The position numbers were made by a program, and so were the translations under genes. Below are positions 3,217 to 32,475 of a DNA stretch of 64,000 nt, in pieces. The notes beneath the pieces were generated by a model. The model made no database searches and was not told where the DNA came from. It saw nothing but the letters and a program-made list of their open reading frames with translations. Source of the DNA: a phage. The stretch lies in assembly GCA_026188615.1 (NCBI GenBank), contig GCA_026188615.1_4525.1. The stretch is one strand, 5' to 3'. Positions within the stretch are counted from its first letter, which is position 1. Each line of letters starts with the position of its first letter.

Positions 3217-3876
3217 TTAACCTCGATTCATAAATGCATTAAATATTTGGTCATCAACAGAAATTTCTAATTCAACTTCAATTGCTTCAGCCTTTTCTTC
3301 AGGTGGTAATTCATATCCACACACTACAATTTTTTCATCGATATCAAAATATACAGAAGCAATACGATTAATGTTACTTTCAGTTAAGTCTAAATCAACA
3401 TCAACATCTTTTTGACCTACACTTAAAGGATAACTAATACGGGTTATTTTATTATCTTTAACAAAGAGACCACCAACATACTCTGTACTACGTTTGAAGT
3501 TTACACGTTTCCGAATTGAAAGATATGATGCATCTTTACCATGAGCTCGGCTCATAGGACATAATGAATAGCTAGAATAAGAGATGTCAAATCCTACACC
3601 TTCAATATGAGCCAACGTGTCATGATTAAACCAATTATAATCATATGCCAAATCCATTATATTGTAATATGTGAAAGGCACAGGATTAACATCATATGTT
3701 GTACCTTTAAAATCTGCCCAGGCAACGATTTCGTTATCTTTAACAATTACAAAAATTACACCAATATGGTATCCGTTATTATTTTCATTCGGCGTTATAT
3801 TATAACATTGTGCATTAGGAAATTTACCATATTTAAATGGCGCATTTTTGTGCATATAATAAATCATATTATTCAC
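3217..3876 (-). CDS. hypothetical protein (61.2-like position)
   Basis: 219-aa ORF; no motif recognised. Confidence 0.5.
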   Translation of the reverse strand: MNNMIYYMHKNAPFKYGKFPNAQCYNITPNENNNGYHIGVIFVIVKDNEIVAWADFKGTTYDVNPVPFTYYNIMDLAYDYNWFNHDTLAHIEGVGFDISYSSYSLCPMSRAHGKDASYLSIRKRVNFKRSTEYVGGLFVKDNKITRISYPLSVGQKDVDVDLDLTESNINRIASVYFDIDEKIVVCGYELPPEEKAEAIEVELEISVDDQIFNAFMNRG

Positions 3877-4162
3877 CTGTGATTTCGGTTACGATATCTT
3901 TGTTATCGAAATTAGGGTCACAATACAAAACATAGTTGTACTGCATGATACCGCCAGACTTAAGTTGTTCAACAACTTTATTAACCATATTAGGACGGTC
4001 TCGTTTAGTGATGTTCATGATATCAGAGAAGATTTGTTGTTCAACATCTTCTTGATTTGCAGTCATTGACCACTCACAGAGGTCTTTATCATAACCTGCC
4101 GTAACTGGAGCCGGTGCACATGATACTGCAAGTAAGATTGCTGCCAATGATAACTTTTTCAT
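3869..4162 (-). CDS. sp: spackle periplasmic protein Sp (61.3)
   Basis: 97 aa; signal peptide then GYDKDLCEWSMTA...KSGGxMQYNYVLYCD matches T4 Sp; RBS AAGGAG. Confidence 0.9.
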   Translation of the reverse strand: MKKLSLAAILLAVSCAPAPVTAGYDKDLCEWSMTANQEDVEQQIFSDIMNITKRDRPNMVNKVVEQLKSGGIMQYNYVLYCDPNFDNKDIVTEITGE

Positions 4163-4191
4163 TTTAACTCCTTAGTTGATTTGATAGGACT

Positions 4192-4221
4192 ACTATACTA
4201 TAGTCCATCTATAATGTAAAC
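4192..4221 (-). promoter_or_regulatory. T4-early-type promoter (GTTTAC -35, TATAGT -10)
   Basis: GTTTAC-N18-TATAGT upstream of sp; dyad symmetry flanks -10. Confidence 0.6.
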
Positions 4222-4225
4222 AAGT

Positions 4226-4474
4226 TTATTCTTTTTCGCGAATAATAATTACTTGTTGAGGCTGCTGAGCAGATTTCTTTTCGGCAACGATAGACCAAAT
4301 TAAAGTTCCAATCCAACCAATCATCGTCCAGTTAAAGAGTAAAGATACAAAGAAGATTGCTGTTGTGCTTTTTGTGCCACGAATAAGTGCGATTACCCAA
4401 GGCAACATGTAAATGATGATTGAACCAATACCTGCGATTAAAACTGCTACTGAACTAGCTACGAATAATTCCAT
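4226..4474 (-). CDS. small membrane protein
   Basis: 82-aa ORF, two hydrophobic helices, RBS AGAGGA; early promoter upstream. Confidence 0.55.
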   Translation of the reverse strand: MELFVASSVAVLIAGIGSIIIYMLPWVIALIRGTKSTTAIFFVSLLFNWTMIGWIGTLIWSIVAEKKSAQQPQQVIIIREKE

Positions 4475-4502
4475 GTTAATTTCCTCTTGATTTGTTATGT
4501 TT

Positions 4503-4532
4503 ATAATATCTTGTTTTAACTTTGGTGTAAAC
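4503..4532 (-). promoter_or_regulatory. early-type promoter
   Basis: GTTTAC-N18-TATTAT upstream of ORF 4226..4474. Confidence 0.5.
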
Positions 4533-4535
4533 CAA

Positions 4536-4904
4536 TTAATTAAATTTGTTTAAACGTTCAATACACTGGACGTAGTTATTCGCTATTTGTTTCTGGGTAG
4601 GCTCTTTACCAGTTGTTTCAACATAGCGAATGAATGCGATTTCAGTAGCCTGTAAGCAATGTTCTTTAACGCGTTGTTCTTTTGACAATGCTACAGTATC
4701 AGAGTCACGATAACGTTGAGCATGGGCATCAGCTTGAATCATTCGATTACCTACAGTAACCGGGTCTTCCACTTCAACTTTAGGTTGTTCATATTGTTTA
4801 ACATTCGGATTGTAAATCAGTTGGCCAACGTTATTAGGGATAAAGCCATGGGCACCACATCCGGTTAATCCGAATACCATTGCTAAAGCGATTAATTTTT
4901 TCAT
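4536..4904 (-). CDS. putative lipoprotein
   Basis: Internal start MKKLIALAMVFGLTGC (lipobox) with GAGGA RBS; track ORF 4536..4964 extends upstream. Confidence 0.55.
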   Translation of the reverse strand: MKKLIALAMVFGLTGCGAHGFIPNNVGQLIYNPNVKQYEQPKVEVEDPVTVGNRMIQADAHAQRYRDSDTVALSKEQRVKEHCLQATEIAFIRYVETTGKEPTQKQIANNYVQCIERLNKFN

Positions 4905-4964
4905 TTCAATTTCCTCTGTAGTTGATAGAAAGATAGTAACACAGTATGTGGTGCTTGTAAACAA

Positions 4965-6210: not shown

Positions 6211-7653
6211 TTAAAATTTTAACTCATTGGCTAAGCTATCTAGGTCAGCACGTGTTGCTTTGGCTTTACCTACGCGTTCCGTACGATTCACCTCTGCCTG
6301 ACGCATCTGAGCACCTGCGTTTTCATTTACTGTGTTAGGTGTGTTCATGCCTTCTTGCTCGATCTCAATCCATTTCTGGTTGCCTTTACGTACACCCATC
6401 AGGAATTTATTCCACTTATTCTTATCGCCGTATCGTGATTTGATTTGTTTGATAAGTTGTTGTTCAGCTTGTGCAAGTTCTTCGGTTTCAATTACGGCCA
6501 ACATGAAATCTGCCGTTGCTGGTAAACCTGCTGATTCTGCAATATCACTCATGTTCATATCCGAAGCATCCCATGCTGCACGCCCTACTTGAGCTGCAGT
6601 CCATAGAACTGTTTCAGATTCTACTGCTAATGCACGAAGTTCTTCTGCGATAGCTTTAACTAATGTGTAGCTATTTTCAGTGTAAACTCTGATACGACAA
6701 GACCCACAAATACCTAAGTAATCAACCATGATTACAGATGGCACAAAGTTCTTCTTGAGTTTCAATTCATTAAGCAATGCACGGAATGTATTAGCATTAG
6801 CTCCGCCAGTAGGATACTGTTTAACTACTAAACGTCCTAATGTGGATTTTGAACGCCATTTTTCCATCTTGGCTTTATATTCGGCATAAGATACGTTACC
6901 ATCATCGATATCATCAAGTGATACGTCAAGCATGTTTGCATCTATACGCTTAGCACAAACTTCTTCAGCCATTTCCATAGAAATATAAAGAACGTTATGG
7001 CCTGTTTGAAGATAATCTGCAGCAAGTGAACAAAGGCCTAAAGATTTACCGACGTTAACACCAGCCATTAAAACGTTTAGTGTACCTGTTTCTGCACCGC
7101 CTTTAGTGATTTTATTCAAAATGTTTAATTTGAACGGGACCTTACGTGCTTTATTTAGATAAGAAAGCCAGCGTGCTTCGTAGTCTTCCATCCAGTCATG
7201 TCCAACATAACTATCAAACGAAATTGAAAGTGCTTGACGCATAATATCAGGAATAGCTCCTACATCAGGCATTTTCTTGTTACGTTGTTCTGGAGGTAGT
7301 TCAGCATTAGACTGAATCTCAATGATTTTGGATGTAGCATTATACATCGCTTTTTGCTGGACATATTTCTCAGTTTCTTTAACCAACCATTCGTGGTCTT
7401 CAGGAGTATCAGCCAATTTTTCAATTAGGTCTGAAGTTCCTTTATATTCGGCTTCAGTTAAAGAACTGTTATCTAAAGCCACCTTTAATGCATTGATAGA
7501 TGGCATTGCATTATATTCGTTAACGTGGCTCTTTATAATTTTAAAGACATTTTTTGCCGGTCCACGCTCAAAATACTCAGAATCCATATAAGGCCAGACC
7601 TTAGAAAAATAAGCCTGGTCATATACTAGATGAGACAAAATAATTTCTACCAC
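6211..7653 (-). CDS. 41: replicative DNA helicase gp41 (DnaB family)
   Basis: 480 aa; MVEIILSHL..., Walker A GVNVGKS; start codon appears to be GTG. Confidence 0.93.
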   Translation of the reverse strand: MVEIILSHLVYDQAYFSKVWPYMDSEYFERGPAKNVFKIIKSHVNEYNAMPSINALKVALDNSSLTEAEYKGTSDLIEKLADTPEDHEWLVKETEKYVQQKAMYNATSKIIEIQSNAELPPEQRNKKMPDVGAIPDIMRQALSISFDSYVGHDWMEDYEARWLSYLNKARKVPFKLNILNKITKGGAETGTLNVLMAGVNVGKSLGLCSLAADYLQTGHNVLYISMEMAEEVCAKRIDANMLDVSLDDIDDGNVSYAEYKAKMEKWRSKSTLGRLVVKQYPTGGANANTFRALLNELKLKKNFVPSVIMVDYLGICGSCRIRVYTENSYTLVKAIAEELRALAVESETVLWTAAQVGRAAWDASDMNMSDIAESAGLPATADFMLAVIETEELAQAEQQLIKQIKSRYGDKNKWNKFLMGVRKGNQKWIEIEQEGMNTPNTVNENAGAQMRQAEVNRTERVGKAKATRADLDSLANELKF

Positions 7654-7662
7654 GATAACTCC

Positions 7663-8004
7663 TTAAAAGAATTTAAATTTTTTCTTGGTCCGTTCATTAA
7701 AAGCTTGTTGTACTTGCATTGTAATACATTTTTCAACATGTGGTGCAAGTTCTGCTTTTCTGTCCTGGTCAAGAACTGCAAAGTCCATTACGATTTTACC
7801 ATCAACCCAGTCTAGTTTTGTAATATAGACTATATGATGAGAACCATCTTCAAGCGTAATCAGAATCTCTTGAATGACATTTTCCATTGCTGAACGGATA
7901 ATTTTAAGAGATTCATTAAACACTCGTTCTTTGCGAATGTCTTCCCCTTCCGAAGAAGGGGATTCATCAACGATTTCTAGATTTAAATCATCGAGATTAT
8001 TCAT
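7663..8004 (-). CDS. 40: gp40-like protein (head vertex assembly chaperone position)
   Basis: Internal ATG MNNLDDLNLEIVDESPSSEGE immediately after uvsX stop; ~114 aa as T4 gp40; synteny. Confidence 0.6.
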   Translation of the reverse strand: MNNLDDLNLEIVDESPSSEGEDIRKERVFNESLKIIRSAMENVIQEILITLEDGSHHIVYITKLDWVDGKIVMDFAVLDQDRKAELAPHVEKCITMQVQQAFNERTKKKFKFF

Positions 8005-9169
8005 CGAAATCTTCCATTTCGTCAAGGTCGTTTTCAATATCTGCTGCAGACGGAGCATCAGAAGCTTTAACAGGAACTTTAGTTGTTGCTTTGCAATTAA
8101 TAAGGTCGTTAACAGCGTCATCAACTTCTTTAATAGAAGAGATAGCACCTAGTTTATATTTAGTTTCAATTGCATCTCGGAAAGGTTTGTGTTTAAACAA
8201 CGGTCCCCAGAATTCTACACAATCAGTAGCTTTAGCACGCCACGATTTCTCTTCACGAATCATTTCGCCTGTTTCTTCGTCAAGGAATTCACGAGCATAC
8301 CAACCAGCTTTAGGCTTAACTACAAAACCAATTTCAGTTGCCATTTCTAGCAAGCCGCTGAATGGGTCGATACCACCATCAAAATTAACCGTGATTGGGA
8401 AAGTAGATTTTTCTTTAACGGTGCGAGATTTTTCTGCTTTCAATGTGAAGTCATAACCGGTCAATTCTGTACCTTCTTTAACCTGACGTTTAGAGATAAA
8501 GAATACAGTGTTAGCAGAGTAAAGAATACCTGTACCACCACCCATAATCTCTTTAGGATACAATCCGCCAATTTCCATTGCGGTATGGTTAATTGCAACA
8601 CACGGAATATCTTTAATAGTCAGATAAGGAGTCACAATGCGGAACAGAGATTTAAGTGCCTTAGCACGAGACATATCACCTACAACTTTCTCGTTCAACG
8701 CATCTTCGGTTTCTTTCTTAGATGCAGTATTACCGATTGAATCGATAAAGATAATAACTTTATCACCGCGTTCAATAGCGTCAAGCTGATTAGTCATATC
8801 AACTTTAAGTTGTTCGACAGATTGAATCGGAGTATGAACTACTCGGTCTAAATCAACACCCATTGATCGAAAATAAGATTCTGAAGCACCAAATTCAGAA
8901 TCATAGAACAAACAAATTGCATCTTTATATTTCTTCATATATGCTGCAACCATAGTCAGCCCAAACAACGTTTTAAAGTGTTTAGAAGGAGCAGCAAAAA
9001 TAGTCAAGCCTGATTGCAATCCTGCATTCAGAGCACCACCTAGTGCAATATTCAACATCGGAATACGAGTAGGGACTTCATCACGATTATTAAACAGCTT
9101 AGACTTAGTCAAGTCTGCAGTCATTTTAGAAGTAGAAGCTTTAATCAGACGAGATTTTAAATCAGACAT
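7997..9169 (-). CDS. uvsX: recombinase UvsX (RecA-like)
   Basis: 390 aa; MSDLKSRLIKASTSK...GWYAREFLDEETGEMIREEKSWRAK matches T4 UvsX. Confidence 0.95.
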   Translation of the reverse strand: MSDLKSRLIKASTSKMTADLTKSKLFNNRDEVPTRIPMLNIALGGALNAGLQSGLTIFAAPSKHFKTLFGLTMVAAYMKKYKDAICLFYDSEFGASESYFRSMGVDLDRVVHTPIQSVEQLKVDMTNQLDAIERGDKVIIFIDSIGNTASKKETEDALNEKVVGDMSRAKALKSLFRIVTPYLTIKDIPCVAINHTAMEIGGLYPKEIMGGGTGILYSANTVFFISKRQVKEGTELTGYDFTLKAEKSRTVKEKSTFPITVNFDGGIDPFSGLLEMATEIGFVVKPKAGWYAREFLDEETGEMIREEKSWRAKATDCVEFWGPLFKHKPFRDAIETKYKLGAISSIKEVDDAVNDLINCKATTKVPVKASDAPSAADIENDLDEMEDFDE

Positions 9170-9817: not shown

Positions 9818-10717
9818 TTATTCCTCGATTACGACATCTTCGTATTTAGGTATATTATACGGCGAAGAAATTAAAGCATTAAAGTAGATGAACTCACCAA
9901 GACCTGGATGGAATACTTCTTCAGGATTTTCGAAATATTGAATCTTCGGACGTCCTTTAAGAATTTGATAGTACTCAGTTTTAGTTGGTTTAAAAATTCG
10001 AATCAGCGCTTCTTCAGGATACTTATTTCTGTCGAAGCTATTATTTGGATCGGTTATATAAAGCGGTTGGCCTAATTGAATTGCACATTCAACCACTTGT
10101 TCAAAACGATAGCACGGGTCACTAATTCGAAATGGATGAAAAATACCATCTAGATGAATAGGAGCCAAATCACCTACAAGACGCTGCATGATGGAAGGAC
10201 GTATAACTTTCTGAGTTACGATAATCTTATTACCATCTGCACCTGCGTTAACCAGCACTTCTTTTTGACGTTCATTCAACACAGTAGTTTGAAGTGAACT
10301 ATTAACTGACAACATATCGGTTTTTAAGAATTCGTCAATATAAAAACGTGGTTTATTAGGGTCTGCCGTGATATTGAAATTGAATTCTACATCAAAAGCG
10401 CCGTCATAACCAGTGATATCTGTTATTAGAAAATCACAATCATAATAAGCAATTAATGAATCAACCACAAATTCATTTTCAGACCAGAAATATTTACGAG
10501 TGTTATACGCGTTATCTTTATACCATAATGGAACAAACTTAAATTCTGGGAAAAGACGTTCACATTCTTTAATATCAGATGCATTACGTGGATATGTAAT
10601 CACATCACCTGGATTAGCACGGTGCAAATGAAGTTGGAAGTTGCCATCCTTAAGGATAGCATACTGTCCAGTTTCATAAGACCGCATACTCAAGATAGGT
10701 ACGCGGAAAATAGCCAT
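9818..10717 (-). CDS. hypothetical protein (299 aa) in place of beta-glucosyltransferase
   Basis: No recognisable motif; TAATG stop/start overlap with gene 42, 1-nt gap to downstream kinase-like gene. Confidence 0.6.
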   Translation of the reverse strand: MAIFRVPILSMRSYETGQYAILKDGNFQLHLHRANPGDVITYPRNASDIKECERLFPEFKFVPLWYKDNAYNTRKYFWSENEFVVDSLIAYYDCDFLITDITGYDGAFDVEFNFNITADPNKPRFYIDEFLKTDMLSVNSSLQTTVLNERQKEVLVNAGADGNKIIVTQKVIRPSIMQRLVGDLAPIHLDGIFHPFRISDPCYRFEQVVECAIQLGQPLYITDPNNSFDRNKYPEEALIRIFKPTKTEYYQILKGRPKIQYFENPEEVFHPGLGEFIYFNALISSPYNIPKYEDVVIEE

Positions 10718-11433
10718 TAGTCAAGGAATCCTTTAACATAATCAAAATCACGTTCAAACACATGGGCACTTACCATGGTATGAGTATAATCACCAACTTC
10801 TACACCGCATTCGTTAGCGATATAATGAAGTAATTTTCCTTGGAGATAAAAATCCAACTGCATAACAACAGCACAGTTCTGAGAACGCATATGGCAGTGG
10901 GTATAAAGCTTACCATCACGAATATAATAAGTCACTGAGTCAGTACATGGATATTCAAGCGTTTCGTCTGAATCAAGCAAAGCCTGATCAGAACTTTCTA
11001 GAATTTGGAACACAACTCTTCGGGAGTTAGGCTTCTCTTTAAGTTCTTTTAGAAGAGCTGGTAATTGGGCCGCAATGCGAGGACCATAGAAAGTGTTGAA
11101 GTTCGCCGGCAAAACATCTGATTTTGGTTTAGAAATAAATTTAGCGACATTAGGATATGCCTTAAACGCTTCTTCTGCGTTGGTACCACCAGAAATCATA
11201 AACTTCCAGAAGTCTTCGGCATATTCATAAGAGATGCGGTTAATACGTGGGTCGGTCATTTTGAATGATGATGGAGTGTCAACAACTACTGTCATAGACC
11301 CAATTTCATTACAACGTCCAATACGAGAATCAGTTACGAATTCCGGGTTTTCTAAAATTTCACGATTGACTGCTTTAAATGCGGTTTGAAAATCTGCGGC
11401 TTTGATATATTTCATTGTGTTATGTTTTCCCAT
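10717..11433 (-). CDS. 42: thymidylate-synthase-family dCMP hydroxymethylase (gp42-like)
   Basis: 238 aa; SRRVV, YPCTDSVTYYIRDG, HMRSQN and QLDF align to T4 gp42 NPDSRRGIM / FMCTNTVQYLIRD / NMRSND / RNDY motifs. Confidence 0.75.
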   Translation of the reverse strand: MGKHNTMKYIKAADFQTAFKAVNREILENPEFVTDSRIGRCNEIGSMTVVVDTPSSFKMTDPRINRISYEYAEDFWKFMISGGTNAEEAFKAYPNVAKFISKPKSDVLPANFNTFYGPRIAAQLPALLKELKEKPNSRRVVFQILESSDQALLDSDETLEYPCTDSVTYYIRDGKLYTHCHMRSQNCAVVMQLDFYLQGKLLHYIANECGVEVGDYTHTMVSAHVFERDFDYVKGFLD

Positions 11434-11452: not shown

Positions 11453-11476
11453 ATTATATACTCAATTCATAAAGCT
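11453..11476 (-). promoter_or_regulatory. middle-promoter-like element (AGCTTTA box + TATAAT)
   Basis: MotA-like box 11 nt upstream of TATAAT, ~20 nt upstream of gene 42 ATG. Confidence 0.4.
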
Positions 11477-11715
11477 TATTTGAATTTCTTGGCAATGTTG
11501 ATATAACGTAAAGCTTCAGAATCTATACTTCCAAGAACACTATGAAGGAATGCATCAGTGTAGTATTCCAATTGAACAGGTTCTTTAATCACTTTAGCCG
11601 CTTTGGTTTCAAACAGGCCCATAAGGGCCTTTTTAAGAATTTGTTCGTTAGTGTTCAGTTTCATAGTCAAAATCTCTTCGTTAAGTTTATAATTAAAACT
11701 TTTTCTAGAAATCAT
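11476..11715 (-). CDS. hypothetical protein (79 aa)
   Basis: ATGA start/stop overlap with upstream 386-aa gene; soluble, no motif. Confidence 0.5.
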   Translation of the reverse strand: MISRKSFNYKLNEEILTMKLNTNEQILKKALMGLFETKAAKVIKEPVQLEYYTDAFLHSVLGSIDSEALRYINIAKKFK

Positions 11716-12872
11716 TCCGGGTACCTCAAAGCGTCATCAGAGTTAGTTATATCAATAATAGATATGGAGTTTTCTGCTAACCCGTTTTTAGATAATTGAC
11801 GTTTATAATACCTTTCACAATATGTACACGTTGACCCACAGATTTCATTAGCACAATCAAAATCTGGATGTCTGAACCACCTTTTTTCTAAAAAGCCATC
11901 TAACAAAGAGGTTTCAATATTTACTGTATGTGAAAACTCAGTCTCATTTTCAAGAGTGAAAATAGTCTCTAAAGGCTTCCACAGTTCTAACAAATTACCT
12001 TCAAACTTTTCAGAAGCGTATGCTTCAAGAACTTTCAAAATGTAGTCTGTGCTACCTGTACGTCCTGAAACTTTGAATTGAGTGATACCAATATCATTAT
12101 AAAGTTTCAAATCTTGAGGACGAACAAAACGAGTTCTCAACCAGTTAAATGGGTCTGTATCACGAGCTTTAATACAGTGCTGCATTGGATATCCGTTTAA
12201 GGATTTAGCATCATCAGCTGTAACATCAGTACTATGGAAAATATAGCAAGAGTCACGATAGCTACAATGTGTTGTATACCCTTTACCAGCATTAGAACAG
12301 AACTCATTTACAAGAACTTCAAATATTATATTGTTCTTATTGCAAAACTCTGCTGCACGCTTCAGGAAAGAAACTGAACGGTTCTTATGAATTCCACAGC
12401 AGACCTTTTTGATATTATATTGGTCATGCAAGTATTTGATTTGAGTTACAGCATCGACATGTAGAATTGTTGAAACTTCAATCTCAATGTCTTTATTGAC
12501 TTCACGAACAATTTCCATAACAACAGGGTTAGCGATAGTAATACGCCATACGCCTATTGACCAAAGATACTGAACATAATCCTGAATAGCTTTCTTCTTC
12601 CACTCAACTAGTTCTCTTTTTGAACCAGGATTTATCGTGTTGAGTGTATAGTTAAAGCAAATACCTAATTCGTTACAACGTTTAACGTAGTCTTCTAACA
12701 TCTTTTTGTCAACGTCAGGAAGCCTAAAATCAGGTCTGGCTGCTACAAAAGCCATTTCTCTTGTAGAGCCGTATACTTCGTTTATCAAGCTATTAGGATA
12801 AGTTTTATTGAGCTCTACGATTTTATCAAGAAGAGCTAAATCAAAATTCGTTCCGATTTTAAAAGTATTCAT
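11712..12872 (-). CDS. Cys-rich hypothetical enzyme (386 aa)
   Basis: Multiple Cys clusters (KVCCGIH; NEFCSN...HCSYRDSC; C-terminal CANEICGSTCTYC); weak resemblance to Fe-S/TIM-barrel enzymes, not assignable. Confidence 0.55.
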   Translation of the reverse strand: MNTFKIGTNFDLALLDKIVELNKTYPNSLINEVYGSTREMAFVAARPDFRLPDVDKKMLEDYVKRCNELGICFNYTLNTINPGSKRELVEWKKKAIQDYVQYLWSIGVWRITIANPVVMEIVREVNKDIEIEVSTILHVDAVTQIKYLHDQYNIKKVCCGIHKNRSVSFLKRAAEFCNKNNIIFEVLVNEFCSNAGKGYTTHCSYRDSCYIFHSTDVTADDAKSLNGYPMQHCIKARDTDPFNWLRTRFVRPQDLKLYNDIGITQFKVSGRTGSTDYILKVLEAYASEKFEGNLLELWKPLETIFTLENETEFSHTVNIETSLLDGFLEKRWFRHPDFDCANEICGSTCTYCERYYKRQLSKNGLAENSISIIDITNSDDALRYPE

Positions 12873-12928: not shown

Positions 12929-13330
12929 TTATAGATTCGGTTTATATGATTTAAATGTTTCGAATTCGCCTTTATTCATAAGAGCTTTGAATTCGTCAGG
13001 ACGCATAGCTTTGTCGTCGATAATCCAATCATATACTGGTTTATGTGTTAGCAAATTATGGTACTTCAAACCAATGTTTTCCAAGTTCTGAATCAGACTT
13101 GGGAGAATGTCAATTGCTATACGACCAGGACCTACTGACTTCATACCACGAGCAGTGTAAAGCGTTATGGTATGCCCTGCATCATACAGGGCATTAATGG
13201 CAGACACCATTTCGACGTCTGGTTTGAAGTTCACGTAATCACGATTGTTATTCCATTCCGTGATGCAATCATCGACATCAAAACAAAGATTAAGCATGTT
13301 TTCTACACGGTGCATTAGATTCGTTCCCAT
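12929..13330 (-). CDS. HAD-superfamily phosphatase (KdsC-like small sugar-phosphate phosphatase)
   Basis: 133 aa; motif I FDVDDCIT, motif II ITLYTAR, motif IV WIIDDK; 16-nt overlap with upstream gene. Confidence 0.65.
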   Translation of the reverse strand: MGTNLMHRVENMLNLCFDVDDCITEWNNNRDYVNFKPDVEMVSAINALYDAGHTITLYTARGMKSVGPGRIAIDILPSLIQNLENIGLKYHNLLTHKPVYDWIIDDKAMRPDEFKALMNKGEFETFKSYKPNL

Positions 13331-15000
13331 TGATGAGTGATATCGCCACCGATTGGACGATAGGAAACACCAGTTTCTTTATCAGTTAGTACCCATTTAC
13401 CCGGATTTTTTGTAATCAGAGTAGCCGTTACAGGTTCTGCTACGTCATAACTAATAGAGCCGTCTTGAAGTACACGGCCCATGTTACGTAATTGCTTAGT
13501 CAGAAGTTCCATACCTTTATAATATGCGGCTACCGCTTTAAGTGGATTATTCTTGAAATAACCACCTAATGCAATCCAGATAATTGCTACAGCCAAATGA
13601 TGATACTCGTTAAACGAACTCATCTTTCCATATTTGTAAACTAATGGATTGATGTTAATAGTCACATTACAAGTTGTTTCATCAATAGTAAACTGTCCCC
13701 AGGCCGGATTAGCATTGAATTCATCATAACCTGAAACAGCATAAAGCACTTTAGCTTCATCATATAATTTTGGCCCGTAAATCTTGGTTTCGCCAAAATA
13801 TCCACGAGGGTCGATAAACTTGACTTCACCGTTATCAGTAATCATAGTATTACTGAAGTTCGGGTCACCATGAATAACAGAGTACTGTCCCTGAGAACGA
13901 TTATGATAACGAATAAGGTGTTCTAAAGCTTGTTTCAGCATTGGCTTCAGACGTCCAATCTTAGTGTAGTTCACATGTGTGATTTTACCAAATGAATCAA
14001 TCAATGGTTGAATGCTTTCACAACGATCAATAACTTTCGTATAGAATTCTTTAGTGAAATCACGACGAACAGTTTCAGGACTTACAAAATAAGTGTCTGT
14101 GCTGAATTTCAGTGCATCTAAAATTGCATCAACAATTTGTGGACGAGCAAGACTTGATTTGGATTTAATATATTCAAATGCCGGCTTACCTTTAATGCGT
14201 TCCATTTCAAAATTATTTTCATTAACAGAAACTAACTGAGGAACTGAATCTGATTTCACTTTAAGATACCATGAAATCTCATCTTTCTGAAGAGCTCGAC
14301 CCTGTTCGGTTAATGCGAATTTAGTTACAGTTTCTTCACCAATTTCAACTGCATTAAAACTACGGTTCAGTTCACGAACTTCATGAGCTTTTTCAAGTTT
14401 AGGCATATCACCTAAATCAATTAGATTCATAAGCTCTGATTTATTGAATGCGCTACCGTAAAGGAATTCTACGAAATCACGTCCTTTGCAGTATTCATGA
14501 ATTTCTTCATCGGTGGAACCCATATAGAATTCCCAGTCTTTGAACTGATAAATTCCTACAACATTACCACCTGTTGAACCTACGTTAGTGATATTTTCAC
14601 CGTCGAAATTATATCGACATTCGTCACCCTTAACATAGATTGCGTTAACATTCCAAGACCATGAACCAAAATCCGGAATAATATCACACCAGTTAACAAT
14701 TACATTATGGCCGTCTAAATCTTTGTGTAATTTAGCAAGAGCATAAGCAGAACCATACGCTTCATCAACTGTACGAATAGTCACATTGAACCCTTCTTGC
14801 TCACAATAAGCTCGAACAGTTTCAGCAAATTTTGAATGAACTACTACAATAATTTCATCTGCGCCAAGGTCAGAATAAATTGTATACAAATTGCTCAGAA
14901 TAGTGTCTTGTTTATAGTTAACAAGCACCTTAGGAATATGATGCGTTATTGGATACAAACGAGTTGCCAGTCCAGCACCAAGAATAACAGCTTTTTTCAT
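13315..15000 (-). CDS. bifunctional sugar-1-phosphate nucleotidyltransferase / APH-type sugar kinase
   Basis: 561 aa; N-terminus KKAVILGAGLATRLYPIT (RmlA/GalU-type G-x-G-T-R-x-x-P-x-T); C-terminal VIHGDPNFSN...KFIDPRGYFG (aminoglycoside/choline-kinase-like). Confidence 0.7.
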   Translation of the reverse strand: MKKAVILGAGLATRLYPITHHIPKVLVNYKQDTILSNLYTIYSDLGADEIIVVVHSKFAETVRAYCEQEGFNVTIRTVDEAYGSAYALAKLHKDLDGHNVIVNWCDIIPDFGSWSWNVNAIYVKGDECRYNFDGENITNVGSTGGNVVGIYQFKDWEFYMGSTDEEIHEYCKGRDFVEFLYGSAFNKSELMNLIDLGDMPKLEKAHEVRELNRSFNAVEIGEETVTKFALTEQGRALQKDEISWYLKVKSDSVPQLVSVNENNFEMERIKGKPAFEYIKSKSSLARPQIVDAILDALKFSTDTYFVSPETVRRDFTKEFYTKVIDRCESIQPLIDSFGKITHVNYTKIGRLKPMLKQALEHLIRYHNRSQGQYSVIHGDPNFSNTMITDNGEVKFIDPRGYFGETKIYGPKLYDEAKVLYAVSGYDEFNANPAWGQFTIDETTCNVTININPLVYKYGKMSSFNEYHHLAVAIIWIALGGYFKNNPLKAVAAYYKGMELLTKQLRNMGRVLQDGSISYDVAEPVTATLITKNPGKWVLTDKETGVSYRPIGGDITHQWERI

Positions 15001-15041
15001 GTTGAAGTCCTCATTGGTAAGTAGGAGTATTGTACACTATT

Positions 15042-15185
15042 CTAGTTAAAGCATTCATACTTTGCTTGTAGTCCAATCATAATCCATCCAATTACAAGTG
15101 TTGGAATCATTACTGGAGCCGTTAAGCTCCAGTAGATAGTCATGACAAGCATCAATAGTAAAAGTCCTATTGTTATTGCTTTCAT
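15042..15185 (-). CDS. small hydrophobic peptide (47 aa), not in ORF track
   Basis: MKAITIGLLLLMLVMTIYWSLTAPVMIPTLVIGWIMIGLQAKYECFN; its ATG overlaps the TGA of the SIS gene (ATGA); ends 42 nt before the nucleotidyltransferase start. Confidence 0.5.
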   Translation of the reverse strand: MKAITIGLLLLMLVMTIYWSLTAPVMIPTLVIGWIMIGLQAKYECFN

Positions 15186-15817
15186 TGTTCGCCTCGTAAC
15201 ATGGCACCTAGTGCACCGCCTGGATGGAACTTAAGGAAATCATTAGAGGTAAATCCGCGTTCAGACGAAAGGTTGATAGCGAACGTATCGATAAGCGCTA
15301 ACAACAATGTAGTAGACATTGTCGGAGCTAAAGAGTTCTCGTCAACTTCTACTGCGATGCCTGTACAGAAAGAGTAATCAAAAAGGGCTTCATTTTCTTG
15401 TGGAATGTCTGGGTTACAATGCAACAGAATCTGTTTGACGTTCGGTCGAATCATTTTAAGATGCTTAGCCACGCCTATCATTTCTTCAGTTTTACCAGAA
15501 CGACTAATATGAATCAACACGTCATTAGGCGCAATAAATCCTGCATCACCGTGAGAATAATGTCCAGTGTTCAAGTACATACTCGGGATACCGAGTGAAG
15601 CAAATGTCTCAGAAGCTTTAGTTGCAATATTAGCATTCTTACCAACACCTGTAATAATTACTCGGCTTTCATAATTACTAAGTCCCGGGCGTCGAAGAGT
15701 TTCTAGAATAGCATTATAACGAGCAGGGTTTTGACTAATTACTTTGGCCATAGCGGCCAAAGAAGAAGCTTGTTTTATGATTGCGTCAATAGCGATAGTA
15801 ATAGGAGTAGTTTTCAT
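15182..15817 (-). CDS. SIS-domain sugar-phosphate isomerase (KdsD/GutQ arabinose-5-phosphate isomerase-like, no CBS domains)
   Basis: 211 aa; GVGKNANIATKASETFASLG and FHPGGALG motifs typical of SIS isomerases. Confidence 0.7.
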   Translation of the reverse strand: MKTTPITIAIDAIIKQASSLAAMAKVISQNPARYNAILETLRRPGLSNYESRVIITGVGKNANIATKASETFASLGIPSMYLNTGHYSHGDAGFIAPNDVLIHISRSGKTEEMIGVAKHLKMIRPNVKQILLHCNPDIPQENEALFDYSFCTGIAVEVDENSLAPTMSTTLLLALIDTFAINLSSERGFTSNDFLKFHPGGALGAMLRGEQ

Positions 15818-15857
15818 ATTTCTCTCATTTAATTAGTTTACCGTCCATGACATTATA

Positions 15858-18569
15858 TCAAAAATCGAACATATCGAACAGAGATGCTTTCTTCTCATAA
15901 TCGAGTTTCGCTGCTGATGTGAATCCTTCAAGTGGTTTAATAAATGTCTTCTCAAGGAGAACAGTGTAGTCCATCCAATGAAGTACATCATCTTTGATTA
16001 AATCAGTGATTTCCGTACCAGAAGGCCATGCGATACATTTATCACCGAATGGGTTTCCTTCACGTAAAGGCAGAACATATACTTTTTCACCTTCTACAAC
16101 TTGCGGCGCATCGATATTACCTTTGATAGCCCGGTTATACGTCAGAATTCCACGAATATGGAACGGGCATTTGGGACCAGGGAATCCACCGACGTCATAT
16201 TTAGCAATGTTATTCGCAGAAGATACCGACGCGATGCTAATATAATTCAATTGACGGAATTCTTTTTCAAACTCTTTAAAATATTCTTGTAATGATTCTT
16301 CACCTTCTTGAAGCATACGACGAATACATTCCTTAAGAGCTTTCTGTACTGCTTTAGGGGTTGAAGATTTCTGTGTTTCGAGACCCATGATTTTAAGCTT
16401 AGGTTCAGCGTATCTAGTTCCTTCCATATCCCACACGTTTAATGCATAACGTTTCTTACCAGTCCAGAATCCACCAATACCTTTAGAACCGAGCGGAGGA
16501 CCAGCGATAGCTTCTCGGTCCATGAACATCAAATGTTGTTTATTGTTCATGTATTCACACATTTCACGGAAACCTCTATCAATAGCTGGTTCCATACGTT
16601 CACGTGCAAACTTATCTAAGAAGTCTACCCAATGGTTAGTATCACGGAATTTAGATTCACCAACCTTATCGATAATTTTATCAGCAGATACGTAAATAGA
16701 GTCTGTATCACCATAAAGAACGAAAGCTTCGCCTTCTGTACCACAAACTTCATTCAGGTATTCATTAACTTTACGTTCAATCCACTGTAAAGCCATTTGC
16801 CCGAATGTTGTGATTGCAGTAGCATTACGCAAATCATAATAACGGAACCAAACGTTGCCAAGTGCACCATAAAGTGAGTTGATAAGCAATTTACGGTTAA
16901 TCTGTGCAGTCATACCTGCAACTTCAGTACGTTGAGCTCTAAACAACATTTCATTAAGAGATTTAGCAGACAACTTTTTAATCTTTTCTTTAATCTCATC
17001 GCTGAAGTCGAAACGATAATCAACATCTAATGGTTCGTCAACAGAAAGATTAGGATTATGCAATGCCTCTTTAATTATTTCACCATTACGTTGAGCTGCA
17101 AGCATGTAACCTTTATGTTCTTTACGTTGATTAAAGACCTTAGTGATTTCAGTTGGAACTACACCATCACGGTCTTTATAATACATCATGCCGTTAGGAG
17201 AACAACTGTACACATCTGAAGGACGTTCAGCGATTGCGTTAATATAATCATGCAATGGAGCTACTTTAAACGTTCCTGCTATTGTTTCTGGGCTAATATT
17301 CACTTGGCGAATAATACTTGGATACAGAGATGTAAGGTCGAAACTCATTACATATTTGTATCGATTTGGAATAGGTTCCTTAACAAAAGCGCCAGGATAA
17401 GGTTGAACCGGGTGAGAACGACCTTGTGGAATCACCTTGTTCTGCTCTTTAAGGCTATTAAAAATAATAGCATCCCATGTTTTAATTGGGCTAAACACAG
17501 ATTGAATCTGTATCTTAGCATAATAACCCATGTCCAAGCTCAAGTTGATGAACTGACGCTTAGCATCAATTTGCAATACACGATACACGTCGATAATGTT
17601 ATAAGAAATATATCGTTGGTGATTGCTTTCACGAAGCTTAGAAATAGGGCCGTCATATTTCAGTTTACCAACGTTCAATTCAAATTCTGAAATGTAATCC
17701 AGAGAATATGACGGTTGGTTCGTGAAAGAGAACTTTTTGTAAAGGTCAATGTAATCAAGAACAGAGATACCGAACAATGTAATGATTTCACGAGAACCAT
17801 ACATGTTTTCGATAACTTTAACACGAGTTTTACGATGTGGTGATAAACGTTTCGCAGTAGATTCGCCAAAAATATTCTTGATTCGGTTATACACATATGG
17901 AATATCAAATGACTCAACGTTCCATCCAGTCAAAATGACAGGAGTTTTCTGTTGCCAGAAGTTGAGATATTCCATCAATAATTCTTTTTCATTATCAAAC
18001 GGCATATAAACGATTTTGTCGATAATTTCGGATGGAACTTCATCACCACCTTGTTCTTGAAGCTTAGCTGCAATTTCGATAGACCATTCTTCTACATTAC
18101 CATATGGAGAATTCAATAGATCAAATACGTAGAACCTGTCGTCAATTGAGTCATAATGGGTGATAGCATCAATCGGATGTTTTGCTTGTGACGGCTCAGG
18201 GAACCCGTCCGGAGATGTTACTTCGATGTCGAAGTTAGCCACACGAATTTTTGTATGGTCGTATTTGATTTCATAGTTATAAGTGTCAGACAAATACGCC
18301 AATTTGAAATCGTCCATGCCAAGTGCTTCAAGTCCGATATCTTCCATGCGTTTAATCCATTGGGAGGCATCACGCATATTAGCGAACAACTTACGAGTAC
18401 ACGGCTTACCGTAGATATCGAAATATTTCGTAGCCTGACTTTCTGGACAATGAGCAAACAGTGATGGTTTATATTCTACTTCACGAGTACGTTCACGACC
18501 GTTAGAATCGATGTAACGTTCAAAAATTGAATCACCAATCTGTTCAACCGTTAAGTAAAATTCTTTCAT
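15858..18569 (-). CDS. 43: DNA polymerase gp43 (family B)
   Basis: 903 aa; MKEFYLTVEQIGDSIFERYIDSNGRERTREVEYKPSLFAHC... matches my recollection of RB69 gp43; exo and pol motifs (FDIEV, YGDTDS) present. Confidence 0.97.
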   Translation of the reverse strand: MKEFYLTVEQIGDSIFERYIDSNGRERTREVEYKPSLFAHCPESQATKYFDIYGKPCTRKLFANMRDASQWIKRMEDIGLEALGMDDFKLAYLSDTYNYEIKYDHTKIRVANFDIEVTSPDGFPEPSQAKHPIDAITHYDSIDDRFYVFDLLNSPYGNVEEWSIEIAAKLQEQGGDEVPSEIIDKIVYMPFDNEKELLMEYLNFWQQKTPVILTGWNVESFDIPYVYNRIKNIFGESTAKRLSPHRKTRVKVIENMYGSREIITLFGISVLDYIDLYKKFSFTNQPSYSLDYISEFELNVGKLKYDGPISKLRESNHQRYISYNIIDVYRVLQIDAKRQFINLSLDMGYYAKIQIQSVFSPIKTWDAIIFNSLKEQNKVIPQGRSHPVQPYPGAFVKEPIPNRYKYVMSFDLTSLYPSIIRQVNISPETIAGTFKVAPLHDYINAIAERPSDVYSCSPNGMMYYKDRDGVVPTEITKVFNQRKEHKGYMLAAQRNGEIIKEALHNPNLSVDEPLDVDYRFDFSDEIKEKIKKLSAKSLNEMLFRAQRTEVAGMTAQINRKLLINSLYGALGNVWFRYYDLRNATAITTFGQMALQWIERKVNEYLNEVCGTEGEAFVLYGDTDSIYVSADKIIDKVGESKFRDTNHWVDFLDKFARERMEPAIDRGFREMCEYMNNKQHLMFMDREAIAGPPLGSKGIGGFWTGKKRYALNVWDMEGTRYAEPKLKIMGLETQKSSTPKAVQKALKECIRRMLQEGEESLQEYFKEFEKEFRQLNYISIASVSSANNIAKYDVGGFPGPKCPFHIRGILTYNRAIKGNIDAPQVVEGEKVYVLPLREGNPFGDKCIAWPSGTEITDLIKDDVLHWMDYTVLLEKTFIKPLEGFTSAAKLDYEKKASLFDMFDF

Positions 18570-30661: not shown

Positions 30662-32475
30662 TGATGCTTAACCCTATGCATGATTTCTTTATTTTTGCCT
30701 AGATTAAATCCGCGTTCGTTCGGATTTCCCAAGTAACCGCAGGTCCTTCTTATAGTGTTCATCTTTTTAGGATCAGTTTCTCCGCAAACTGAACAAACAA
30801 ATCCGTTTTCAGTAGGAGTCATTTCATGGGTACTTCCGCATGTAAAACACTTATCTACTGGCATATTAACACCAAAATAATCTAAATGTTGTGCAGCATA
30901 ATCCCAGACAGCCTCAAGTCCCTTTAAATTGTTTTTCATATCTGGAAGTTCAACATAAGAAATGTGACCACCTGACGCAATGAAATGATATGGCGCTTCA
31001 CGAGAAATCTTTTCAAACGGAGTAATATTTTCTTCTACTGAAACATGGAAACTATTAGTGTACCAGCCTTTATCAGTGACATCCTTTACACTTCCATATT
31101 TTTCCGTGTCGAGTTTACAGAAACGATAACACAAGTTTTCAGCAGGAGTAGAATACAAGCTAAAAGCAAAACCGGTTCTTTCGGTCCACTGTTTAAGATG
31201 AGCATTCATCTTAGTTAAAATTTCTTGTCCAATATCACGACCGACAAGAATATTCAATTCGTGAATACCAATGTATCCTAGGGACACTGAACTTCTACCG
31301 TTTTTAAATAACTCAATTATATCGTCATCAGGTTTAAGACGGACCCCGAATGCACCTTCTTGGTAAAGAATAGGAGCAACAGTCGCTTTAACCCCTTTTA
31401 AGGAACTAATTCTACACATCAAAGCTTCAAAACACAAATCCATTCGTTCATCGAACAATTCGGCAAATTTCTGTTCATTGAACTGTGTTCCAATATAAGA
31501 ATCTAATGCGATACGAGGAAGATTCAGTGTTACAACACCGAGATTATTACGTCCATCAAGAATTTCATTACCGGTCGAATCTTTCCATACGCTCAAGAAA
31601 CTACGGCAACCCATTGGAGAAACAGGAACTGAAGAACCGGTAATAGCTTTATTATTCTTAACCGAAATAATATCAGGATACATTCTTTTGCTTGCGCACT
31701 CTAGAGCAAGCTGCTTAATATCATAGTTCGGATCATCTTTATAAAGATTAACACCTTCTTCAACAAACATAACAAGCTTAGGGAAAATAGGAGTTATTCC
31801 ATCACGACCAAGACCTTTAATGCGGTTTTTAAGAATTGCCTTCTGAATCATTCGTTCAGTCCAATCGGTTCCCGTACCAAATGTAATTGTTACAAAAGGC
31901 GTTTGTCCGTTTGAACTAAAGAGAGTATTTACTTCATATTCATAAGCTTGGAATGCGTCATAGACATCTTTTTCTGTTTTGGATTGAGCATAATTCAACG
32001 CATCAGCGATTTGCCATTTTTCTGCATCTTCAACATGTTTAGCGTATGTGCGTTTAACATAAGGAGAAAGAACTTTATCGACATTCGCAAATGTAGTTCC
32101 GCCATACTGGTGTGAAGCAACTTGTGCGGTAATTTGTGCCATAATTGCAGTAGCAACGCCAATAGATTTAGGCGTTTCAATTTGAGCATTGCCTAATTTA
32201 AATCCATTCTCAAGCATCCCCTTTAAATCGACTAAACAGCAATTAGTAAATGGAAGAGCAGGAGAATAATCAATATCATGCATGTGAATGATTCCGCTTT
32301 CATGCGCATTCATAATAAAAGACGGGACCATATTTTTGGCAATGTGCTTAGACACAATACCAGCCATAAGGTCCCGTTGAGTTGGAAAAACACGAGAATC
32401 TTTATTAGCATTCTCGTTTAAAAGGTCTTTATTAGTTTTATGAATTAATCCTTCAATTTCTTTTTCAATTTTCAT
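30658..32475 (-). CDS. nrdD: anaerobic ribonucleoside-triphosphate reductase NrdD
   Basis: 605 aa uninterrupted; C-terminal Zn site CFTCGS...CSVCG and glycyl-radical motif RTCGYLG. Confidence 0.95.
   Translation of the reverse strand: MKIEKEIEGLIHKTNKDLLNENANKDSRVFPTQRDLMAGIVSKHIAKNMVPSFIMNAHESGIIHMHDIDYSPALPFTNCCLVDLKGMLENGFKLGNAQIETPKSIGVATAIMAQITAQVASHQYGGTTFANVDKVLSPYVKRTYAKHVEDAEKWQIADALNYAQSKTEKDVYDAFQAYEYEVNTLFSSNGQTPFVTITFGTGTDWTERMIQKAILKNRIKGLGRDGITPIFPKLVMFVEEGVNLYKDDPNYDIKQLALECASKRMYPDIISVKNNKAITGSSVPVSPMGCRSFLSVWKDSTGNEILDGRNNLGVVTLNLPRIALDSYIGTQFNEQKFAELFDERMDLCFEALMCRISSLKGVKATVAPILYQEGAFGVRLKPDDDIIELFKNGRSSVSLGYIGIHELNILVGRDIGQEILTKMNAHLKQWTERTGFAFSLYSTPAENLCYRFCKLDTEKYGSVKDVTDKGWYTNSFHVSVEENITPFEKISREAPYHFIASGGHISYVELPDMKNNLKGLEAVWDYAAQHLDYFGVNMPVDKCFTCGSTHEMTPTENGFVCSVCGETDPKKMNTIRRTCGYLGNPNERGFNLGKNKEIMHRVKHQ

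Follow-up and report, generated by a model that had tools for sequence, protein, structure and literature searches.

The window, i.e. the whole 64,000 nt stretch of phage DNA analysed here, belongs to an RB69-like Mosigvirus. A 2.5 kb query across the small ORF in focus showed 97-98% identity to Escherichia phages moskry and RB69 and to more than 140 other Mosigvirus records. All genes of the locus are encoded on the minus strand. DNA polymerase gp43 (15858..18569) is followed by a SIS-domain arabinose-5-phosphate isomerase gene (SIS, 15182..15817), the ortholog of RB69 gp55 based on a Pfam SIS match (E 1e-10) and the annotation in relatives. Next comes the small ORF (15042..15185, stop codon included), which the ORF listing, phrog_3610 and PF26865 identify as an ortholog of gene 42.1 encoding a 47 aa small membrane protein. 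Downstream lie a bifunctional, AfhE-like nucleotidyltransferase/kinase gene of 561 aa (NTase, 13315..15000; Pfam NTP_transferase), the ortholog of RB69 gp52:53 (PMC13326640), and genes for a small HAD-like protein (12929..13330), a U32-like protein (11712..12872) and a thymidylate-synthase-like protein (10717..11433). Located between the latter two, a 79 aa ORF (11476..11715, minus strand) has no Pfam match in the window; its counterpart carries a CM_2 (chorismate-mutase) domain in PM2 and is annotated as chorismate mutase in KLB31. The RB69 record AY303349 shows the nucleotidyltransferase-kinase split into ORF053c and ORF052c (6501..8187 of the RB69 excerpt L001), whereas the window has one intact 561 aa ORF. 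This agrees with the report that the split in RB69 is a sequencing error (PMC13326640).

The product of the small ORF is MKAITIGLLLLMLVMTIYWSLTAPVMIPTLVIGWIMIGLQAKYECFN. Its position on the minus strand, its length of 47 aa and its ATG start in the ORF listing are those given by the initial annotation. Its ATG occupies 15185..15183 and the TGA of SIS 15184..15182, which makes the reported ATGA overlap real (15182..15185, minus strand). The distance to the NTase start amounts to 41 nt (TAG stop at 15044..15042, ATG at 15000) and not to 42 nt as claimed before. The GAGGA ribosome-binding site described for the NTase gene is present at 15012..15008 on the minus strand, 7 nt before its ATG. Within the SIS coding region, a further GAGG (15195..15192, minus strand) precedes the ATG of 42.1 by 6 nt and is a plausible Shine-Dalgarno sequence of 42.1's own.

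The ATGA junction appears compatible with termination-reinitiation, and the GAGG could also permit independent initiation of 42.1. An extended -10-like element, TGATATAAT (15852..15860, minus strand), includes the pol stop codon and is found 35 nt before the SIS ATG. It represents a candidate promoter for a joint SIS-42.1 transcript. We assume that 42.1 would be made early together with its upstream gene, by coupled or Shine-Dalgarno-assisted translation. In a genome this rich in AT, ORFs of 47 aa often arise by chance, and 4 nt gene overlaps are common too. Hence neither the length nor the overlap is significant alone and the case for a gene rests on conservation.

The small ORF had been introduced as unannotated, which does not hold since its family is already catalogued and already known. 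phrog_3610 matches over the full length (residues 1-47 of 47, E 6.8e-27). PF26865 is precomputed on homologs at 94-96% identity and on every other homolog in a large protein collection. Its label Phage_T4_Y02C derives from a second tool, and the Pfam set scanned directly comes without the PF26865 model. The identical 47 aa protein is deposited as ‘hypothetical protein’ on 137 contigs (NCBI accessions; NCBI and UniRef) and is annotated in moskry as moskry_71 / QHR76509.1. The records of RB32 and VR7 call the ortholog gene 42.1, and the T4 ortholog is entered, in UniProt style, as ‘Uncharacterized 5.6 kDa protein in Gp42-imm intergenic region’. RB69 has it as RB69ORF054c, noted there as ‘similar to T4 42-imm intercistronic region’ and shortened to 36 aa because the start was placed at an internal Met. 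Neither NC_000866 nor AF158101, the two T4 reference records, annotates the 49 aa ortholog. Coupled to imm by ATGA, it occupies NC_000866 26227..26376 (L003 2228..2377, minus strand), and 7 nt separate its end from gene 42. No feature is listed at 42.1 in about a third of the T4-type records sampled. The name itself is ambiguous between records because the 1988 T4 record M37159 (2259..2510) uses ‘ORF 42.1’ for today's imm and ‘ORF 42.2’ for imm.1. A literature search on 42.1 and its ORF and family names, T4 ribosome profiling included, found no paper on the gene in the library searched.

By tblastn, the 42.1 frame proved intact in 772 phage records, all from T4-like phages that infect enteric bacteria. 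The family is narrow, since only three true clusters emerged when a profile was run against 1.84 billion representative proteins. A 481 aa repeat protein (P0021) from the wide profile search was discarded as spurious upon reading its sequence. No paralog of the small ORF was found in the window, where the next best match to the family profile has an E value of 0.027. According to the alignments, the small ORF carries the conserved family residues P24, M26, P28, W34, Q40, C45 and N47 and falls into the 45-50 aa size class. It also has the location of the family, i.e. the variable 43-42 stretch downstream of the DNA polymerase gene 43, with a start overlapping the upstream stop. The T4 protein and the window copy are orthologs of 53-55% identity (49 and 47 aa) which share the motif P-x-M-I-P-T ... 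G-W ... Q-x-K-Y-E-C-x-N, the position in the stretch between genes 43 and 42 and the ATGA coupling to the upstream gene. They differ in their neighbours, the upstream partner being the SIS isomerase in the window and imm in T4, the downstream gene the nucleotidyltransferase-kinase and gene 42, respectively.

42.1 is confined to T4-like phages of Enterobacterales. Comparison of the loci shows that it always resides in the variable region following gene 43 and, in phages that possess gene 42, precedes that gene. T4 and RB32 exhibit the order 43-imm.1-imm-42.1-42, VR7 the order 43-imm-42.1-lipoprotein-uvsX and Bp7 the order 43-imm-42.1-lipoprotein-NTase/kinase-HAD. In a JGI metagenome phage (L029), 43-imm-42.1 is followed by a 165 aa frame, SIS, an 86 aa frame and NTase. 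Mosigvirus, Kanagawavirus, Tegunavirus, Winklervirus and PM2 share the order 43-(lipoprotein)-SIS-42.1-NTase. The comparison further shows that the ATG of 42.1 always overlaps the upstream stop, whether this belongs to imm (T4, RB32, VR7, Bp7, JGI metagenome phage) or to SIS (the five SIS-type lineages just named). The ATGA junction is seen at 23 of the 23 loci examined, with SIS and imm alike. Serratia phage 4S has imm-SIS, then 51 nt and NTase, with no 42.1 match at the locus. Acinetobacter phage KARL-1 (SIS, 67 nt, NTase) and Klebsiella phage Marfa (pol, NTase) have no 42.1, and in Salmonella phage Melville (Gelderlandvirus) imm is coupled directly to gene 42, again with no 42.1. Its absence at the locus from Melville and Serratia 4S means that 42.1 is dispensable in some lineages. 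In the simplest reading, 42.1 would have been in the variable 43-42 stretch for long and the sugar genes would have been inserted later at the gene boundaries flanking it.

The initial annotation suggested an Imm-like membrane protein. As a statement on homology this fails: the small ORF has no Imm_superinfect (PF14373) match at E ≤ 10 in the Pfam scan, and a comparison of the 42.1 and Imm alignments by hhalign gave a probability of 1.2% over 8 columns. Both together rule out Imm homology. The profile match including the L-P-W..A..R-G and G-W..G-W motifs that marks the Imm family is lacking in the small ORF. The true Imm of the window is encoded at 4226..4474 (minus strand; PF14373, 63% identity to T4 Imm), about 10.5 kb from the small ORF. 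It is flanked by Imm.1 (4536..4904, minus strand, DUF5481) and Spackle (3869..4162, minus strand, PF25676, E 1e-42), the three forming one cluster at 3869..4964 (minus strand) of the window. A T4-early-promoter-like GTTTACA-N17-TATAGT is found between imm and sp of the window. In T4, the spackle gene (61.3) is not known to adjoin imm, so that the adjacency of imm and spackle would be specific to this Mosigvirus.

What remains of the Imm idea is neighbourhood. 42.1 is located directly downstream of imm in T4, RB32, VR7 and Bp7, and also in the JGI metagenome phage, in each case as its ATGA-coupled neighbour. Moreover, genes for envelope proteins recur beside 42.1. In T4 this is the gene of the lipoprotein Imm.1, and VR7, Bp7, Kanagawavirus and 4S have other genes of lipoprotein type. 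That all these neighbouring lipoproteins are Imm.1 (DUF5481) was ruled out, as only the copies of T4 and the window match. T4 Imm and 42.1 also resemble each other as small, early, hydrophobic inner-membrane proteins from the 43-42 stretch (predicted in the case of 42.1) whose genes are adjacent and coupled in T4-type phages. One could hence picture 42.1 as a functional partner of Imm, an accessory of the immunity system by which superinfecting DNA is stopped at the inner membrane, kept at a fixed ratio to Imm by the coupling. However, the two proteins have no sequence relationship and 42.1 has only about half the size of Imm. In the window, 42.1 is coupled to a sugar isomerase while Imm, Imm.1 and Spackle are encoded 10.5 kb away. 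Melville and Serratia 4S contain Imm with no 42.1 at the locus. Yersinia phage phiR1-RT represents the opposite case. Its record harbours an unannotated 50 aa 42.1 homolog (at about 32117..32266), and upon scanning the whole genome (168,809 bp) in six frames no homolog of Imm, Imm.1 or Spackle was detected, the positive control for the Imm profile giving E 7e-38 on the window. We therefore regard a partnership with Imm as unlikely. The adjacency of 42.1 and imm in T4-type phages is real but no functional requirement.

In the window the small ORF indeed sits between two genes of the arabinose module and is ATGA-coupled to the SIS isomerase gene, as described initially. RB69 DNA carries diarabinosyl-5-hydroxy-deoxycytidine (PMC13326640, 2026). 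Synthesis of NDP-arabinose in RB69 employs the gp55 isomerase, the gp52:53 kinase/pyrophosphorylase and the gp51 phosphatase, and these three soluble enzymes suffice for the published pathway (PMC13326640). gp54, which corresponds to the small ORF in RB69, is mentioned in neither of the two RB69 arabinose papers, PMC13326640 among them. No catalytic or sugar-binding domain was found in the small ORF with Pfam, NCBIfam or PADLOC.

The proposal of a membrane tether, by which 42.1 would anchor or organise the isomerase and the nucleotidyltransferase-kinase at the membrane as a member of the arabinose pathway, draws on the placement between SIS and NTase and the coupling to SIS, which are shared by Mosigvirus, Kanagawavirus, Tegunavirus, Winklervirus and PM2. 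The distribution of the genes argues against it. About 490 of the 772 carriers, roughly two thirds, match at <60% identity and are mostly T4-type phages; in T4 and RB32, the T4-type carriers examined, arabinose genes are absent from the 42.1 locus, as sugar genes are in VR7. T4 and RB32 glucosylate their DNA. Conversely, the sugar genes of KARL-1, Marfa and 4S leave no space for 42.1 between them, and in Bp7 and the JGI metagenome phage 42.1 is found upstream of the module, coupled to imm. A homolog of AfhE, the kinase/pyrophosphorylase, is present in 369 records, 57 of which are Acinetobacter phages, a genus not among the ten commonest of the 42.1 tblastn matches. The distributions of 42.1 and AfhE overlap, neither containing the other. 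Across genomes, 42.1 does not consistently accompany the genes for isomerase, kinase-pyrophosphorylase and phosphatase. Together with the sufficiency of three soluble enzymes, this renders pathway membership very improbable. The presence of 42.1 is independent of the arabinose genes as well as of Imm, as the comparison of the loci shows.

To evaluate the coding status, 15 distinct copies of the DNA, drawn from at least six genera, were compared. Frame 0 contains no stop in 15 of 15 copies and is the sole frame open in all of them. Every copy has at least one stop in the antisense frames, and the two other sense frames are interrupted in all copies except four of Kanagawavirus type. Accordingly, no overlapping alternative frame is open in every lineage among the 15 copies. 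Out of 47 sites each, 36, 25 and 46 are variable at codon positions 1, 2 and 3, respectively. dS is saturated between genera, dN ranges from 0.2 to 0.76 and dN/dS, where computable, from 0.06 to 0.58. Indels among the 42.1 copies comprise whole codons only and are located near the N-terminus. This pattern of variation shows that the small ORF codes for protein and is under purifying selection. Whether relatives keep the reading frame was a check named beforehand, and its outcome strongly favours a gene: the frame is kept in 772 records and open in all 15 copies. The claim of a real gene for a small hydrophobic membrane protein is thus borne out by the conservation, the single open frame and the codon-position variability.

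The 3' end of 42.1 additionally overlaps a putative regulatory element. A pattern search revealed a MotA-type middle-promoter-like motif, TGCTTTA-N12-TACAAT (15029..15053, minus strand), which ends 28 nt before the NTase ATG. Its MotA box (15053..15047) falls in the Cys-Phe-Asn codons of 42.1 (TGC TTT AAC) and its -10 (15034..15029) in the intergenic spacer. The pattern occurs at 12 sites in the window versus 2.0 expected, and 4 of the 8 sites on the minus strand lie 23-62 nt before a long ORF. The same geometry was found by pattern scan in the Kanagawavirus copies of 42.1, and an equivalent TGCTTTT-N12-TACAAT was read by eye from the sequence of phiR1-RT. Serratia 4S, where 42.1 is gone, retains a near-match. 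In T4 a similar motif lies within the 5' third of 42.1, as opposed to the 3' end in the window. We suppose that the MotA-type promoter at the 3' end of 42.1 serves the nucleotidyltransferase gene, with a transcript start predicted near 15021. Transcripts from it would miss the 42.1 start, in which case the protein should come solely from the upstream, earlier transcripts.

Kanagawavirus, Tegunavirus and Serratia 4S exhibit a hairpin ATGGTAC-loop-GTACCAT (L005 3645..3670, L007 6147..6170, L021 4784..4806) immediately before their nucleotidyltransferase gene. It overlaps the putative -10 and reaches fold z-scores of -1.6 to -4.5. This hairpin is absent from the corresponding spacer of the window (14995..15050, fold z = +0.84), and no Rfam match was obtained in the small ORF region at E ≤ 1.

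The tripeptide C-[FI]-N at the site of the MotA box is kept in T4 and VR7 by different codons (TGT ATC AAT and TGT TTC AAT) with no MotA box there, which identifies it as a protein motif and not a mere by-product of the promoter. Consequently, although the MotA-type motif overlaps the last 42.1 codons in the window, Kanagawavirus and Tegunavirus, recurs within the T4 gene, and the protein is known here from sequence alone, it is hardly credible that the small ORF is untranslated and its frame open by chance or its sequence kept for transcription or translation signals of the downstream gene, given that C-[FI]-N persists, that third positions vary at 46 of 47 codons compared to 25 for second positions, that one frame alone is open everywhere, and that neither an Rfam match nor a stable RNA structure in the spacer 14995..15050 was found.

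The reading of 42.1 as a translated membrane protein was followed up at the level of the protein. Its GRAVY of 1.36 confirms the strong hydrophobicity noticed initially. By hydropathy, residues 3-21 form a clear transmembrane segment. A second hydrophobic stretch (residues 25-39) is short and proline-rich and has a marginal transmembrane score, and AlphaFold2 predicts one continuous straight helix of residues 2-42 (pLDDT 92) with no hairpin. Of the two transmembrane helices postulated before, the first is therefore clear, whereas the second is marginal and not reproduced by the single-helix model; a total of two is plausible. Two invariant prolines (P24 and P28) are located in the middle of a 37-residue hydrophobic run. 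Lys and Arg occur at the two ends alone and never mid-protein, with K2 and K42 flanking the stretch and the turn uncharged. Y18/W19 and Y43 occupy positions expected for membrane interfaces. In published work on model helices, prolines at such positions induce helical hairpins. On this basis a proline-kinked hairpin is favoured.

We propose that 42.1 forms a helical hairpin, kinked by prolines, in the inner membrane and that its two ends face the cytoplasm. Helix 1 (residues 3-21) would be the anchor, followed by a turn around T22-P24. Among homologs, the sequence of residues 3-21 varies while its hydrophobicity is preserved throughout, as suits the role of an anchor. Conservation is concentrated in the second half (P24, M26, I27, P28, T29, W34, L39, Q40, K42, C45 and N47). 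This half, P-x-M-I-P-T ... G-W ... L-Q-x-K-Y-x-C-x-N, would be the working surface, by which 42.1 may bind and modulate a larger membrane protein, more likely one of the host than one of the phage.

Binding is the likeliest mode of action since no enzymatic domain was found in any library. AcrZ, MgtS and CydX of E. coli as well as gp15 of HK97 are small membrane proteins that act by binding larger ones. Like 42.1, they have at most about 50 aa, contain one or two hydrophobic helices and lack an enzymatic domain. In contrast to this likeness in build, a sequence relationship does not exist; the similarity is an analogy in mode of action and not a membership. Based on the analogy we tentatively suggest, as a possibility well short of an expectation, that 42.1 acts by binding a larger membrane protein via its conserved helix and tail. 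Still more speculative, and on the whole improbable, is the idea of an overlooked early membrane effector of T-even phages. As such, 42.1 could add to the known superinfection-exclusion factors, or it might inhibit a defence or transport protein in the inner membrane of the host. Its target, specific to Enterobacterales, would be bound through the Cys-containing tail and the conserved second helix.

Taken together, the identity of 42.1, its coding status and its independence from the sugar genes can jointly be regarded as highly probable. For the reading as a whole we are somewhat less certain but still consider it likely: the small ORF would be the Mosigvirus ortholog of T-even gene 42.1, coding, independent of sugar genes and Imm, and probably an inner-membrane hairpin that binds a larger membrane protein. 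From the initial annotation, the translationally coupled membrane mini-protein persists, whereas the attributes unannotated, Imm-like and pathway tether had to be given up. The Imm hunch was right only in so far as 42.1 directly follows imm in several T4-type phages.

For the sugar module 42.1 is of little importance, and the arabinose pathway map of RB69-type phages needs no membrane component. Apart from the gap in the T4 reference annotation the general interest is low. This gap is nevertheless of practical relevance. Hundreds of T4-like genomes conserve 42.1, yet neither T4 reference record lists it and the RB69 record gives it a wrong start. Screens that rely on the T4 or RB69 annotations, whether transcriptomic, proteomic or by knock-down, will miss it. 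As a candidate for the expanding class of phage micro-proteins 42.1 is a clean one, having a defined conserved surface and a knockout that is simple to design.
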